Shown here: in pieces, positions 589-6,931 of the stretch
Layout: each line of letters opens with the position of its first letter
Position numbering within the stretch: the stretch's first letter is position 1
Source of the DNA: a virus
Taxonomy: Duplodnaviria > Heunggongvirae > Uroviricota > Caudoviricetes
DNA length: 7,056 bases
Virus record (IMG/VR): IMGVR_UViG_2706794681_000016
Direction: 5' to 3' (one strand)
Made by a program: the position numbers and the translations under genes
Notes under the pieces: model-generated
Database searches by the model: none
Told to the model about the DNA's origin: nothing
The model's input: the letters and a program-made list of their open reading frames with translations, nothing else

Positions 589-1178
589 TGGATTCGTTAC
601 AGGATGATTATACAAAGCTGCTGTACGGACTGATGCCGCCGGGGCCTGCATGGTCAGATACCGACGGTGTACTTGACGGTCTGGCACCATCGCTTGTGCG
701 TGTTCACCAGCGGGCTGATGAACTGGTGATTGAAATCGATCCCGGTCAGTCCACAGAGCTGATTGAACGTTATGAAGAATTGTATGGTTTACCTGATTCC
801 TGTTCCCCTGTCGGAACCCAGACATTACGCCAGCGTCAGCAACGTCTTGAAGCAAAAGCCAATGTGGCTGGTGGCATAAATGAGCAGTTCTTCCTGGATC
901 AGCTTGAGGCGCTGGGATATACCGGCGTAACGATCGAACAGTTCCAGCACTTGGATGCAAGCCCCGATCCGGAATGGGGAGATCGCTGGCGTTATTTCTG
1001 GCGTGTGACGTTGCCGATGGATGCCGGTGCTCAGTGGCAGACATGCACGGACGCCTGCAACACACCGATCCGGACGTGGGGGGATACGGTTGCGGAGTGC
1101 GTGATTAATAAATTATGTCCGTCACACACCGTCGTTTTATTTTCCTATCCAGATGAGGATGAAGATGCACAGGATTGA
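588..1178 (+). CDS. phage tail protein, Mu gp48 / DUF2313 (YmfQ-like)
   Basis: 196-aa ORF; ATG 588 overlaps the upstream stop (TAATG) with AAGGA 9 nt upstream. The product (MDSLQDDYTKLLYGLMPPGPAW...YEELYGLP...) resembles the DUF2313 tail proteins that precede the fibre gene in Mu and e14-type tail modules. Position between baseplate J and the tail fibre fits. Confidence 0.7.
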   Translation: MDSLQDDYTKLLYGLMPPGPAWSDTDGVLDGLAPSLVRVHQRADELVIEIDPGQSTELIERYEELYGLPDSCSPVGTQTLRQRQQRLEAKANVAGGINEQFFLDQLEALGYTGVTIEQFQHLDASPDPEWGDRWRYFWRVTLPMDAGAQWQTCTDACNTPIRTWGDTVAECVINKLCPSHTVVLFSYPDEDEDAQD

Positions 1179-2205
1179 TACGCTGACTGCGGTAAAAGAT
1201 AAGTTTGGTCCGGGTAAGAACGGATTTACTGACGGAAATCTTCGCACAGGACGTCTTGCTACCTGGCTGAACAGTGCCATGTGGAATGCCATTCAGGAGG
1301 AAATCTGTGGTGTCATTGAGAAGGCCGGGATAGAACTGAATAAAGAAGAACACGACCAGCTATATAAGGCTATATTATTGCTGGTGGGCGGTGCAATTAA
1401 CGAAGAGGCATTGCTGATAAAAAATAACCTTTCGGATGTGGAAGACAGGGATGAGGCTGTTGAAAACCTCGGATTAAAACCCACGGTGGATAAGGCAAAA
1501 AATGCCGTTCAGCGTGATGGCGACACCATGACCGGAGAGCTGAAAATCCGTGGTGTTAATGCGCTGAGGATTTTCAACGAAGCTTTTGGCCTGATTTTTC
1601 GTCGTTCGGAAGAGTGCCTGCACCTTATTCCCACCAGTGAAGGTCAGGGGGAAAATGGCGATATTGGTCCCCTGCGCCCGTTCACCATTAATCTGCGGAC
1701 GGGTGAAATATCCATGTCGCATAAAGTGTCTGTTGGCGGTGGTTCGCAGGTCAATGGTGCGCTGGGTATCGGCGTTCAGAACGCCCTGGGGGGGAATTCA
1801 ATTGTTCTTGGTGATAATGACACCGGATTCAAACAGAATGGTGATGGCCTGCTGGATGTTTATGCCAATAGCGTGCATGTGTTGCGTTTTCAGAGTGGCA
1901 GTATCCAGAGTAATAAAGCTGTAAACGTTACAGGACGGGTAACACCGTCAGACTACGGAAACTTTGATGCCCGTTACCAGCAGCGAAATGGTGGCGTGCA
2001 GGATGTGCGGTATGGTTATGAAATGTATTACCCCCCCGGCAGTAACACCGTTTCGTGGACATTTCGCTCACCTTCGGGACACGGGCTGTCAGGGATATCG
2101 ATATCGGATACCGGCCGTAACTCAGCGGATAACGTCAACGGCGTGTATTACCGACCGCTGCAAAAACTGATTAATGGCACCTGGTATAACGTAGCGAGTA
2201 TTTAA
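1165..2205 (+). CDS. tail fibre protein (P2 gpH / Mu S-like C-terminal receptor-binding region)
   Basis: ORF open from 1153; ATG 1165 is preferred because GAGGA lies 5 nt upstream (1153 and 1159 are alternatives). The C-terminal segment ...ALGGNSIVLGDNDTGFKQNGDGLLDVYANS...INGTWYNVASI matches the conserved distal motif of P2 gpH-type fibres as I recall it; the N-terminal ~60 aa resemble a fibre attachment domain. Confidence 0.8.
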   Translation: MHRIDTLTAVKDKFGPGKNGFTDGNLRTGRLATWLNSAMWNAIQEEICGVIEKAGIELNKEEHDQLYKAILLLVGGAINEEALLIKNNLSDVEDRDEAVENLGLKPTVDKAKNAVQRDGDTMTGELKIRGVNALRIFNEAFGLIFRRSEECLHLIPTSEGQGENGDIGPLRPFTINLRTGEISMSHKVSVGGGSQVNGALGIGVQNALGGNSIVLGDNDTGFKQNGDGLLDVYANSVHVLRFQSGSIQSNKAVNVTGRVTPSDYGNFDARYQQRNGGVQDVRYGYEMYYPPGSNTVSWTFRSPSGHGLSGISISDTGRNSADNVNGVYYRPLQKLINGTWYNVASI

Positions 2206-2207
2206 CA

Positions 2208-2753
2208 ATGTTGCATTTAAAAAATATTACGGCAGGTAATCCGAAAACCGCGGAATAATATCAGCTGACAAAACAGTATGATGTCACCTGGCTTTTTTCG
2301 GAAGACGGCAAAAACTGGTATGAAGAACAGAAGAACTTTGCCAGTGACACCATAAAAATGGTTTACACCGGAGACGGGCGCGTGGTGTGGGTCGGTAAGG
2401 ATGTGACAGGCATTGAACCCCGTAACGCCAGTGTTATTGAAGTTCCTGATATTACCGCCAACCGCCGCATTACCGCGCCGGGTTACTGGTTTTACCGCAA
2501 TGATGAATTTGTCTTTGACTACAGACTCAAAGCGGAAGATGAGCGTGATGCCCTTCTGGCTCAGGTCAGTGCCCGGACAGGGGAATGGGAAGAAGACCTG
2601 CTGCTGGGGCTAATCAGCGACGAAGACCGGGAAAAACTGAAAGCGTACCGTATTTACGCGAAATCGCTGCAGGCGATGGATTTCAGCACCATCACTGATA
2701 AATCCTCATATAACGCCATTGAATGGTCCGTCTCTCCGGAAGGTTCTTCCTGA
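2208..2753 (+). pseudogene. tail fibre assembly chaperone (Tfa family) with in-frame TAA at codon 17
   Basis: ATG 2208 lies 2 nt after the fibre stop and reads MLHLKNITAGNPKTAE, then TAA at 2256-2258, then continues in the same frame as YQLTKQYDVTWLFSEDGKNWYEEQKNF... to 2753. Both the N-terminus and the C-terminal ...IEWSVSPE match the TfaQ/TfaR/lambda-Tfa family from memory. The largest uninterrupted ORF is 2358..2753 (131 aa) with no obvious RBS. Confidence 0.6.
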
Positions 2754-2776
2754 TTTAATTTATCGCGAGAAAAACT

Positions 2777-4045
2777 ATGTCTGTAGTGATATCAGGTGCG
2801 CTGACTGATGGCGCAGGCATCCCCATGTCCGGATGCCAGATTATTCTGAAATCCCGTGTAAACACCTCAGAAGTGGTGATGCGTACCAGGGCTGATGTAG
2901 TGACCGGAAATAACGGTGAATATTCGTTTGAGGCACAGGTCGGAAAATATTGCGTGTATCTGAAACGGGACTGGCGCGACGAGTACTGTGTTGGCGACAT
3001 TGCTGTATACGACGACTCAAAGCCCGGCACGCTGAATGACTTTCTGATTGCTCCTGATGAGGGCGACCTGAAACCGGATGTCGTCAAACGCTTTGAGGAA
3101 ATGGTGGCGCAGGCGCAGCAGAGCGCCGGGGCCGCAGCCGGAAACGCACAGCAGACGGCGCAGGATGTGGCGGCAGCCGCAGGTTATGCCCGCGCAGCAG
3201 AGCAGGCCAAAAATGACATTGATGCTGCGCTGACCGGCACTCTGAAAACGGCTAACCATCTGTCTGAAATCGCAGCAGCAGGCGAAAAGGCACAACAGAA
3301 GTCCCGGGATAATCTGGGGCTGAAAAGTGCGGCCACGATGGAAGCACAGAGCGACATTTACGACCGGACAAAAGGCCGTCTGGCGATACCCGGCGCATTC
3401 GGCTTTGGGTGTGCTTTTCTGCCTGAAGATGTTATCCGTTTTGACACTAAGAGTGATTTCCTGGCCTGGGTAAGGAATGCGCTGCCAGGTGAATATTCCG
3501 TTGCTGGCCCCTACGACATCATCATACCCGACACACGGTTTGAAGGGGTGCTCAGCATCCGGTGGACTGATGCACGCCCTGAGACAACAGAACCGAGGTA
3601 CAGAGCCAAATCCCTTACTTTTTACGGCATTAACGGCCCCATTTATCACACCCGCTACTGCTACTGGCCCATATCCAGACTGACTGGCTGGGTGAAAATA
3701 AATATAACCACAGAAGATATTATTTACAGAATCGTGGCGAGCTCTGTCTGCAACAGATGGGGAGACCCTGACATTGGCGGGCTGATTATTGCTGCGTACC
3801 AGGGAGAAGCTGACGGTGATAAAGTCATCAGACTTGTCAGGGGGCAGTCATACAGAGGCTCACGACTGGGACCGGTGGGGATTTCAGTGCCCAGTACTCC
3901 CACCGGAACGTATATAGCATCCCCACAATTTTTCATTACGGGATGTTCAGAGCATTCATTACCGGGGTCATATAGCGCCCTGTCCGGGGTGCCGGATGCT
4001 CATGTCTCTGGCGCAATGCCCGGGCTTTTTATTCGCACATCGTGA
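2777..4045 (+). CDS. side tail fibre protein, lambda Stf-like N-terminal domain, Ala-rich shaft, unassigned C-terminal domain
   Basis: 422-aa ORF. The N-terminus MSVVISGALTDGAGIPMSGCQIILKSRVNTSEVV...VYDDSKPGTLNDFL parallels lambda Stf (MAVKISGVLKDGTGKPVQNCTIQLKARRN...YEDSQPGTLNDFL) as I recall it. An Ala/Gln-rich low-complexity linker follows (~3100..3300); the C-terminal ~230 aa have no motif I recognise. Confidence 0.8.
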   Translation: MSVVISGALTDGAGIPMSGCQIILKSRVNTSEVVMRTRADVVTGNNGEYSFEAQVGKYCVYLKRDWRDEYCVGDIAVYDDSKPGTLNDFLIAPDEGDLKPDVVKRFEEMVAQAQQSAGAAAGNAQQTAQDVAAAAGYARAAEQAKNDIDAALTGTLKTANHLSEIAAAGEKAQQKSRDNLGLKSAATMEAQSDIYDRTKGRLAIPGAFGFGCAFLPEDVIRFDTKSDFLAWVRNALPGEYSVAGPYDIIIPDTRFEGVLSIRWTDARPETTEPRYRAKSLTFYGINGPIYHTRYCYWPISRLTGWVKINITTEDIIYRIVASSVCNRWGDPDIGGLIIAAYQGEADGDKVIRLVRGQSYRGSRLGPVGISVPSTPTGTYIASPQFFITGCSEHSLPGSYSALSGVPDAHVSGAMPGLFIRTS

Positions 4046-4055
4046 GGAATGCACC

Positions 4056-4785
4056 GTGGAAATTAAAAAAATCATTAATCCCCGTTATACCGAAAGTGGC
4101 GCAGTAGACTGTGACGTTTTTTTTGACGACAGGGACCAGGCAGTCCCCTACACAGCCACCGCTGATGATGTCGCACCGACGGGTCAGCGAATCTGGCAGG
4201 AACTGCAAAGTGGCAAATGGGGTGAGATAGCCCCATTCACTGTGACACCAGAAATGCTGGAAGCGGCCAGAGAGGCCAGACGTCAGGAAATTGAAGCATG
4301 GCGCACAGAACAGGAGGCGAAGCCGTTCACGTTTGAATGGAACGGTCGTATCTGGAATGCTGGCCCCAACTCACTGGGCCGCCTGTCCCCGGTAGTCATG
4401 CTGGCAAAATCTGTCACAGCACAAACNNNNNNNNNNNNNNNNNNNNNNNNNNNNNNNNNNNNNNNNNNNNNNNNNNNNNNNNNNNNNNNNNNNNNNNNNN
4501 NNNNNNNNNNNNNNNNNNNNNNNNNNNNNNNNNNACTCACTGGGCCGCCTGTCCCCGGTAGTCATGCTGGCAAAATCTGTCACAGCACAAACGCATATGG
4601 CGTGGGGTGATGCCGATAATCAGCAGGTGAAACTGTCGATGCCGGAACTGGAAGAACTGGCGGCAGCAATGGTGCAGGCGCAGGTCGATCGCAACGATGA
4701 GATTTATCGCCGTCAGCGTGAAATGAAAGAGGAGCTGAGTGGTCTGGAGGATTTGGGAACAATTAGAGCGTTTGATGTTACGTAA
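4056..4785 (+). CDS. putative tail fibre assembly chaperone (interrupted by assembly gap)
   Basis: GTG 4056 lies 6 nt after GAGGAA (4044-4049). The ORF runs into the N gap in frame 0 and resumes in frame 1 to TAA 4783-4785. Removing the 166-nt offset between the duplicated gap flanks gives one continuous ~187-aa ORF. Function is inferred mainly from its position immediately downstream of a fibre gene; family is uncertain. Confidence 0.5.
4369..4426. repeat. 58-bp direct repeat, copy 1 (left flank of assembly gap)
   Basis: actcactgggccgcctgtccccggtagtcatgctggcaaaatctgtcacagcacaaac is identical to 4535..4592. Confidence 0.9.
4427..4534. other. assembly gap (108 N)
   Basis: Uninterrupted run of N seen directly in the sequence. 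Confidence 0.97.
4535..4592. repeat. 58-bp direct repeat, copy 2 (right flank of assembly gap)
   Basis: Identical to 4369..4426; looks like an unmerged contig overlap. Confidence 0.9.
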
Positions 4786-4831
4786 TTGGTAAGCTGCATC
4801 GTGTTAAATTGTTACCCTTATTTACAACTAG

Positions 4832-4865
4832 AAAAGCCTCTGACTTCATAATCAGAGGCTTTTTT
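4832..4865 (+). terminator. rho-independent terminator (partly bidirectional)
   Basis: Perfect 12-bp stem aaaagcctctga (4832-4843) / tcagaggctttt (4852-4863) with an 8-nt loop, followed by a T6 run on the + strand. On the minus strand the hairpin is followed by TTTTC, so it may also act on transcripts reading through from ssrA. Confidence 0.65.
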
Positions 4866-4983: not shown

Positions 4984-5346
4984 TGGTGGAGCTGGCGGGA
5001 GTTGAACCCGCGTCCGAAATTCCTACATCCTCGGTACTACATGCTTAGTCAGTCTTTACATTCGCTTGCCAGCTGCGGACGGACACGCCACTAACAAACT
5101 AGCCTGATTAAGTTTTAACGCTTCAACCCCAGGCAGGGCTTCCACGCGATCTCTTTTGGGTTTGACCTCTCTTGATCCCCGTCCTAAGAGCGGAGGCTAG
5201 GGAGAGAGGGCTCTAAGCAGGTTATTAAGCTGCTAAAGCGTAGTTTTCGTCGTTTGCGACTATTTTTTGCGGCTTTTTACGAGGCCAACCGCCCCTCGGC
5301 ATGCACCTTGGGTTTCGCAAATCCCGTCGAATCCAGAATCAGCCCC
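4984..5346 (-). ncRNA. ssrA: tmRNA (transfer-messenger RNA)
   Basis: 363-nt minus-strand match to the E. coli tmRNA as I recall it: 5' GGGGCTGATTCTGGATTCGACGGG... to 3' ...GGGTTCAACTCCCGCCAGCTCCACCA. The tag reading frame on the minus strand (plus coordinates 5257..5225) encodes ANDENYALAA followed by a stop. Confidence 0.95.
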
Positions 5347-5560: not shown

Positions 5561-6043
5561 TTAACGGTGGGCGTTTTTCATGATACGTGCTTTATCCACC
5601 TGCCATTCGCGTTCTTTGATATCTGAACGTTTATCGTGCTGTTTTTTACCTTTGGCGACGCCGATTTTCACTTTGCACCAGGCATTTTTCCAGTACAGGG
5701 AGAGCGCCACTACGGTATAGCCTTCTCGATTGACGCGACCGTACAATGAGTCCAGTTCGCGCTGGTTGAGAAGTAACTTGCGGGTACGGGTAGGATCGCA
5801 CACCACATGCGTGGAGGCCACGGCCATTGGCGTGATGTTAGCGCCAAACAGAAATGCCTCTCCGTCACGCAGAAGGACGTAGCTGTCGCTGATATTGGCT
5901 TTTCCTGCGCGCAGGGATTTAACTTCCCAGCCTTGCAGGGCAAGTCCCGCTTCGAACTCTTCTTCGATAAAGTATTCGTGACGGGCGCGCTTGTTAAGCG
6001 CGATGGTCGCTGAACCAGGTTTATGTGCTTTTTTCTTCGTCAT
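5561..6043 (-). CDS. smpB: SsrA-binding protein SmpB
   Basis: 160-aa ORF ([25 protein letters not shown]...IMKNAHR) matching E. coli SmpB from memory; ATG at 6041-6043 (minus) and TAA at 5561-5563; located directly upstream of ssrA on the same strand. Confidence 0.95.
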
Positions 6044-6174: not shown

Positions 6175-6651
6175 ATGATATTATTTGTTGGATTTTTGTT
6201 GATGGAAATAGTTATGCCTCAGATTAGCCGGACCGCACTGGTACCCTACAGCGCGGAGCAAATGTATCAGTTAGTGAATGACGTTCAGTCTTATCCTCAG
6301 TTTTTGCCGGGTTGTACCGGAAGTCGGATTCTGGAGTCCACTCCTGGGCAGATGACTGCGGCGGTAGATGTCTCTAAGGCTGGGATCAGCAAAACGTTTA
6401 CTACCCGCAACCAGTTGACCAGTAACCAAAGTATTCTTATGAATCTGGTGGATGGGCCGTTCAAGAAATTGATTGGTGGATGGAAGTTTACGCCGCTGAG
6501 CCAGGAGGCGTGTCGTATCGAGTTTCATCTCGACTTTGAGTTTACCAATAAGTTGATTGAACTCGCCTTTGGTCGCGTGTTTAAAGAGCTGGCGTCTAAT
6601 ATGGTCCAGGCTTTTACGGTTCGTGCGAAAGAGGTTTACAGTGCTAGGTAA
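6175..6651 (+). CDS. ratA: RatA/PasT (SRPBCC, Coq10-like protein)
   Basis: 158-aa ORF ([43 protein letters not shown]...) matching E. coli RatA/YfjG as I recall it; AGGA 5 nt upstream of ATG 6175; divergent from smpB as in E. coli. An internal ATG at 6214 is an alternative start. Confidence 0.9.
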
Positions 6652-6931
6652 AATTGCCGTTGAGGTGGCTTATGCGCTACCTGAGAAGCAGTACCTGCAG
6701 CGCGTGACGCTGCAGGAGGGCGCGACGGTTGAAGAAGCTATTCGCGCCAGTGGCTTGCTGGAATTGCGTACCGATATCGATTTAACTAAAAACAAAGTCG
6801 GCATTTACAGCCGTCCGGCAAAACTAAGCGATAGTGTGCATGATGGCGATCGGGTGGAGATTTATCGCCCTCTCATTGCCGATCCGAAAGAGCTTCGCAG
6901 GCAACGAGCAGAAAAATCAGCGAATAAATAA
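6641..6931 (+). CDS. ratB: RatB (UPF0125 / RnfH-like protein)
   Basis: GTG 6641 gives a 96-aa product ([28 protein letters not shown]...AEKSANK) matching the E. coli YfjF/RatB length and sequence as I recall them. It overlaps the last 11 nt of ratA. The longer ORF from ATG 6557 (124 aa) would overlap ratA by 95 nt and is less likely. Confidence 0.85.

Follow-up and report, generated by a model that had tools for sequence, protein, structure and literature searches.

The mosaic prophage side fibre with its cognate chaperone is a kind of system that is already well known. In phage lambda, a siphovirus, the gene for the side tail fibre Stf is followed by that for Tfa, a PF02413 chaperone, and the Stx2e-converting phage phiP27, which has a Mu-type tail, encodes the pair L56 and L57, of which L56 (490 aa) is itself uncharacterised. 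Chaperones of a different type, containing DUF4376 (PF14301), have been studied with fibres in which a stem and neck lead to one or more knobs and a distal head, namely gp26 of Alteromonas phage V22 and gp8 of A5, whose chaperone genes (gp27 and gp9) lie directly downstream (PMC10579305). In V22, gp27 is required for an active fibre (PMC7289586), and the A5 and V22 chaperones have been modelled as trimeric caps, similar to intramolecular chaperones (IMCs), of knob-head fibres (PMC10579305). The H-fibre of the Campylobacter prophage CJIE1, which has a P2 gpH/DUF3751 anchor, shows receptor-binding activity only when co-expressed with its downstream DUF4376 neighbour, and knob-head fibres with DUF4376 chaperones are able to retarget pyocins (PMC7882524). 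In Av-05, a lytic 121-kb myovirus of the Vequintavirinae, a likewise uncharacterised 416-aa fibre, gp0076, is directly followed by gp0077, a DUF4376 protein of 189 aa.

The locus described here lies in a 7,056-nt stretch of phage DNA, referred to throughout as the window, and the gene of interest, fibre 2, is the second of its two tail fibre genes (Table 1). The best explanation of the whole, to which we would assign a probability of about 0.8, is that fibre 2 is an accessory (side) tail fibre of a temperate myovirus that resembles phiP27 and has a baseplate of the Mu type. It corresponds to phiP27 L56 in slot and gene order, with an anchor that is 90% identical at the amino acid level, a stem that is 77% identical and a chaperone that is 69-77% identical, but the tip, whilst of the same family, is only 37-41% identical and the protein has 422 aa rather than 490. 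With lambda it has in common a homologous PF08400 anchor and the same logic of a fibre gene and then a chaperone gene; however, the chaperone is of the DUF4376 rather than the PF02413 type and the phage is a Mu-type myovirus. The architecture fits that of the DUF4376-serviced knob-head fibres of the V22 type, but without the lectin-like feature of the head, which was not found, and the number of knobs varies by duplication among the relatives of fibre 2, as it does in A5. The CJIE1 H-fibre differs in its anchor, and its likeness to fibre 2 is not based on homology of the tip, whereas Av-05 gp0076 has a tip of the same family (34% identity over 169-420) on an anchor unlike that of fibre 2.

Table 1. 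Coordinates of the features in the window
Feature	Position	Strand	Match or basis
IS1 end, 100% identity	1-90		
Fibre 1, Mu S/gp37-like tip	1153..2205	+	PHROG 6859
Fibre 1 Caudo_TAP chaperone gene (tfa1)	2208..2753	+	PF02413; ATG at 2208
Fibre 2 (second/side tail-fibre gene), 422 aa, intact	2777..4045	+	ORF list, PHROG 2636
Fibre 2 anchor domain, lambda Stf type, residues 1-131	2777..3169	+	PF08400, PDB 9e7m, 7kjk
Fibre 2 Ala/Gln-rich stem and conserved neck/junction, residues 132-204	3170..3388	+	motif conservation
Fibre 2 sub-domain A, alpha+beta knob-like shaft module, residues ~205-322	3389..3742	+	
Fibre 2 sub-domain B, all-beta distal head, putative receptor-binding tip, residues 323-422	3743..4042	+	
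DUF4376 tail-fibre chaperone gene, 187 aa once joined	4056..4785	+	PF14301, PHROG 1141
Hairpin terminator closing the fibre operon	4829..4865	+	15-bp stem then T-run, dG -20.6 kcal/mol, z -6.85
ssrA (tmRNA)	4984-5346	-	3' end ~120 bp past terminator
smpB	5561-6043	-	
Two further ORFs	6175..6651, 6557..6931	+	

The fibre 2 gene is real and intact, the ORF list and translation giving 422 codons from an ATG start at exactly these coordinates. Look-up of the exact protein sequence identified it as a Shigella sonnei protein present on 674 contigs in NCBI, where it is labelled "prophage tail fiber N-terminal domain-containing protein", and ten complete E. coli genomes contain the gene at 95-98% nucleotide identity. 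The profile of PHROG 2636 'tail fiber protein' matches the protein over its whole length with an E value of 7.8e-205, and the tip alone (residues 192-422) at 9e-97; NCBIfam has no family for either fibre 2 or the DUF4376 chaperone. An earlier note on this DNA had raised the possibility that the C-terminus is a frameshift artefact, and this was rejected: fibre 2 in the window retains the frame and length of its family, homologues align through to the final residues (...GLFIRTS against a consensus of GLFxRxA), and the loop containing YCYWPIS is equal in length to that of relatives (RYWTTGNGYLTGW). Nor is there strong full-length identity to a well-characterised fibre, none being closer than ~40%. 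The strings quoted in the same note are all present (AQAQQSAGAAAGNAQQTAQDVAAAAGYARAAEQAKN at residues 111-146, YCYWPIS at 294-300 and SSVCNRWGDPDIGG at 322-335), and it was correct in stating that fibre 2 lacks the motif of the first fibre, as GDNDTGFKQNGDG occurs in fibre 1 only.

On its left side the phage DNA adjoins IS1, which truncates a baseplate J gene (PF04865) to its last ~166 codons (91-588). From position 91 the window is collinear with the tail end of phiP27, the alignable parts being 91% identical in nucleotides, and also with a prophage in E. coli FDAARGOS_944 (97.6-98.4%). The gene order is baseplate J remnant, Mu gp48-like (PF10076), fibre 1, Caudo_TAP, fibre 2 and DUF4376; the same order is found in phiP27 L52-L57, and that of fibre 1, Tfa, fibre 2 and DUF4376 is also found in relatives. 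The terminator of the fibre operon, which was missed by a pattern scan but confirmed by folding, ends close to the 3' end of ssrA, and thus the element is a phiP27-like prophage integrated at ssrA. Fibre 1 is also mosaic, in that similarity to phiP27 (93%) ends at position 2009 and similarity to the FDAARGOS_944 relative (L001) is broken at 1898-1918, so that the distal tip of fibre 1 differs among relatives.

Further copies of the fibre and DUF4376 genes occur as paralogues in S. flexneri SFBU1023 and 'E. coli' ECMA0423 (L007-L015), with four to five copies in each, most of them frameshifted inside the knob. Most of these copies have an ipaH effector gene ~180 bp downstream on the opposite strand, and in E. 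coli FDAARGOS_944 ipaHe is likewise downstream (L001 8020-9661); the copy at ssrA in the window is without ipaH. Actinobacillus phage vB_Apl-pPE4 (PP818812.1, 42568-45936), recorded from Actinobacillus pleuropneumoniae, has 86% nucleotide identity, in pieces, to positions 1945-4755 of the window, an unexpectedly close match for a phage of the Pasteurellaceae.

An important consideration is whether fibre 2 still forms part of a virion. The prophage in the window is defective, because IS1 has removed the DNA upstream of the baseplate J remnant and tfa1 has a nonsense codon, an in-frame TAA at 2256-2258 (codon 17), so that the ORF listed at 2358..2753 represents the remaining 131 aa of a ~181-aa protein. 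Since the prophage is defective, the fibre 2 gene most likely survives as a relic, still intact but no longer contributing to a virion. In its fullest form this reading holds that fibre 2 is without present function, a remnant of a dead prophage that is intact by chance and has been preserved by the clonal youth of S. sonnei, and we consider the odds to be somewhat in favour of it. In addition to the truncated baseplate module and the interrupted chaperone gene of fibre 1, it accords with the frameshifts within the tip of most of the SFBU1023 and ECMA0423 paralogues and with the presence of one or two synonymous against four or five non-synonymous differences between copies in codons 132-422, which are too few to show purifying selection and make dN/dS in the tip uninformative. 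Set against this is the identity of the 422-aa sequence on all 674 contigs, though clonality may explain it, and other phiP27-like prophages in the genome may provide complementation in trans. The question concerns current function, and loss of function now is compatible with an ancestral role as a fibre.

The N-terminal anchor of fibre 2 is of the lambda Stf type. Residues 1-131 match PF08400 (Prophage tail fibre N-terminal) with an E value of 2.4e-63, scoring 212.6 bits where the cut-off is 26.6; residues 1-92 match the lambda Stf chain of PDB 9e7m ('Tail fiber protein') at 4.6e-17, and there is more distant homology to the collar spike of phage Milano (PDB 7kjk, E 1.1e-6). The earlier note had this region tracking lambda Stf closely, and the homology holds but the closeness does not, identity to lambda-type Stf being only ~46% over residues 1-110. 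Lambda-type phages align to these residues only, and a lambda-like shaft and tip were not found.

The view that fibre 2 is a chimera, with an Stf-type anchor joined to an unrelated tip, is borne out by five lines of evidence. A copy from S. flexneri that is itself intact (L008) differs from the gene at 46 nucleotides, 40 of them in codons 1-131 (dS 0.21), and codons 132-422 are ~99% identical. Other Shigella copies have a different anchor allele joined at about nucleotide 400 to a tip that is 98.4% identical, and 114 E. coli records share nucleotides 1-378 of the gene only, at 80-90% identity. On an anchor of the PF12571 (P2 gpH) type, a tip of 45% identity occupies the same gene slot, both where the baseplate context is phiP27-like and where it is different. 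As judged from these alignments a recombination breakpoint lies near codon 131, where the anchor domain ends, and a further exchange junction is likely at the conserved neck. The stem and neck contain the motif LSEIAA...SRDNLGLKSAATM..QSDIYDRT.GRLAIPGAFGFG, and the neck motif is kept in all carriers of the tip irrespective of the type of anchor. The neck (window 3314-3408) is also the sole stretch of similarity at the DNA level to the stf gene of SerU-LTIIb, which is to be expected of a recombination linker. The tip had been taken to start at about nucleotide 3400, but homology indicates that the exchangeable module begins earlier, at about residues 132-189. The stem may be helical or coiled-coil; the shaft has no PF03406 (Phage_fiber_2) repeats in Pfam, such repeats being present in some longer relatives (P0067, P0075).

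The tip comprises ~220 aa, modelled as two small domains of ~100 residues each. When residues 189-422 were modelled as a monomer with AlphaFold2, sub-domain A had a pLDDT of 80-92, and sub-domain B modelled alone was all-beta with a pLDDT of 82 and a pTM of 0.71; these models are of single chains, whereas the fibre is probably an intertwined trimer, and derive from shallow alignments of 12-16 sequences. The two sub-domains are not an internal duplication, an origin rejected on an hhalign probability of 0.8% for A against B. Searches for remote homology, as had been proposed, agreed that the tip is assignable to no Pfam domain or solved structure. In sequence, the C-terminal part matches nothing in Pfam, NCBIfam or PDB, a profile of 24 diverse tips gave no matches among all PDB sequences even at E <= 10, and no PDB entry was matched at E <= 1e-3 in a Foldseek search with the two-domain model. 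The structural neighbours of the tip include R-type pyocin fibres, but kinship to the knobs of the R2 pyocin fibre is weak, and the distal head matches no solved fold. It is plausible that the C-terminal part is the receptor-binding end. No functional study of the tip was found in the literature on PF08400, Avunavirus receptors and phiP27 fibres.

Within the family the head has the conserved motifs GDPDxGGLxLAAYxG, GSRL, LPGxYxALSG and GLFxR, and the most variable stretches of the tip are residues 259-278, 289-328 (including YCYWPIS) and 369-395. Earlier attention had been drawn to four cysteines and to YCYWPIS as marks of the tip. The cysteines are indeed present (212, 295, 325 and 390), but none is conserved in the family, and YCYWPIS is not a family feature; a disulfide or special motif was rejected, as the positions are unconserved and the loop is in the most variable stretch.

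The suggestion that the tip may be an undescribed module did not survive, since it is already contained in PHROG 2636, in the 674 NCBI contigs and in a wider family. When 1.84 billion representative proteins were scanned exhaustively with HMMER, it was found in 94 clusters at 50% identity, and in full-length matches it is always at the extreme C-terminus, in proteins of ~200-1300 aa with PF08400 or PF12571 anchors. Whether it occurs on other phages had been asked, and it does: phiP27 L56, Av-05 gp0076 and SerU-LTIIb stf are members. It is found in only 13 of 50,697 phage records, all at <= 35% identity, and a search for related loci with an alignment as query gave only 11, in Escherichia/Shigella, Salmonella and Yersinia. 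The family is small and already recognised, and there is no Pfam model, solved structure or known receptor for any member. Sub-domain A also occurs alone, in two to three tandem copies in longer PF08400 fibres (P0067, P0068 and P0070), internally in PF12571 fibres with Peptidase_S74 or a gp34-trimer domain at the C-terminus (P0124, P0132), and in the jumbo phage Goslar (MK327938.1 101899-102294), again in a fibre; to judge from these sequences it behaves like a mobile shaft module.

The DUF4376 gene downstream appears split in the window, but falsely so. Positions 4427-4534 consist of 108 N, on either side of which lie the same 58 bp in exact duplication (4369-4426 = 4535-4592), and because of this duplication the run is to be read as a scaffold-join artefact; with the gap and one copy of the flank removed, the joined ORF encodes 187 aa and matches PF14301 (E 1.7e-16) as well as PHROG 1141. 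The gene starts 10 nt downstream of the fibre 2 stop codon, which is overlapped by the ribosome-binding site GAGGAA. RefSeq places the start in the E. coli relative at an upstream ATG (window 3996-4055), giving a 50-nt overlap with the fibre gene and 207 aa; with the GTG at 4056 and its GAGGAA the product has 187 aa, in agreement with the 189-190 aa of phiP27 L57, Av-05 gp0077 and a P2-like neighbour.

A DUF4376 gene follows the tip in all eight of the independent loci checked and, more widely, wherever its context was examined: in phiP27 (L57), Av-05 (gp0077), SerU-LTIIb ('stf2') and P2-like E. coli prophages, in Salmonella and Yersinia loci and in the Shigella copies. Across loci the chaperone is far better conserved (63-77% at the amino acid level) than the knob and head (31-52%), which suggests that the chaperone recognises the conserved core motifs; specificity would then lie in the variable loops. 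Co-variation between the N-terminus of the chaperone and the tip was looked for and none was seen, the chaperone being uniformly better conserved.

The presence of this separate gene bears on the idea that residues 323-422 are themselves an intramolecular chaperone, removed after folding to leave the knob as the true distal end. Some distant carriers of sub-domain A do end in Peptidase_S74 (P0124), so A can precede such a domain, but fibre 2 itself has no match to S74 (PF13884) or any other chaperone domain, the head is predicted to be all-beta whereas the IMC fold is helical (PMC10579305), and a DUF4376 chaperone is already provided; we regard this reading as very improbable. An enzymatic role for the C-terminal region, as a tailspike or depolymerase domain and not a passive binding tip, is extremely improbable: Pfam, NCBIfam and PHROGs gave no match to a beta-helix, hydrolase or lyase family, the matches that exist span only 71-107 residues, as is typical of adaptor or knob modules, and the tip amounts to only ~220 aa, divided between two small domains. 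That the cluster encodes the fibre of a tailocin, a headless killing particle, can be given almost no credence, for although the window has tail genes only, pyocin fibres are among the structural neighbours of the tip and DUF4376-served knob-head fibres can retarget pyocins (PMC7882524), phiP27, which is the closest full relative, is a complete phage and converts to Stx2e production, the head genes are absent here because IS1 has cut the element, and the E. coli relative (L001) retains Mu-type DNA-circularisation and baseplate genes.

The preferred reading, that of an accessory side fibre of a phiP27-like myovirus, can be cast as a mechanism, in which much is drawn by analogy with better studied fibres. 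Fibre 2 would work as a homotrimer, docked on the tail by the beta-sandwich anchor of PF08400, from which the Ala/Gln-rich segment would extend as a helical stem to the conserved neck and then the knob-like shaft domain. The small all-beta distal head would putatively bind a surface receptor of the Enterobacteriaceae, for which a surface carbohydrate is a guess by analogy only. The translationally coupled DUF4376 protein would be the cognate intermolecular chaperone, trimerising or capping the head during folding. The gene itself would have been assembled by exchange of modules, with junctions at the end of the anchor and probably at the neck.

As regards annotation, the locus is to be seen as a decaying phiP27-like prophage at ssrA and not as a new system, the tip being its uncharacterised part. 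It is possible, though on balance doubtful, that the head (residues 323-422) represents a new receptor-binding fold and that, together with the repeatable knob and the DUF4376 protein, it constitutes a mobile, transplantable specificity cassette. If so, the cassette would be common to prophages of the phiP27-like and P2-like kinds in Escherichia, Shigella, Salmonella and Yersinia, would occur also in a few lytic phages (the Av-05 group and, in part, Goslar), and could be transferred onto the anchors of lambda Stf, P2 gpH or pyocins. Fibre tips determine the host range of phages and are swapped to retarget phages, tailocins and delivery particles, and in the present family the tip is accompanied by a compact, well-conserved chaperone and has clear natural junctions, one near residue 131 and the other at the SRDNLGLKSAATM neck. 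With its structure and receptor assigned, the tip would enlarge the set of usable specificity cassettes for Shigella, EIEC and E. coli by one.
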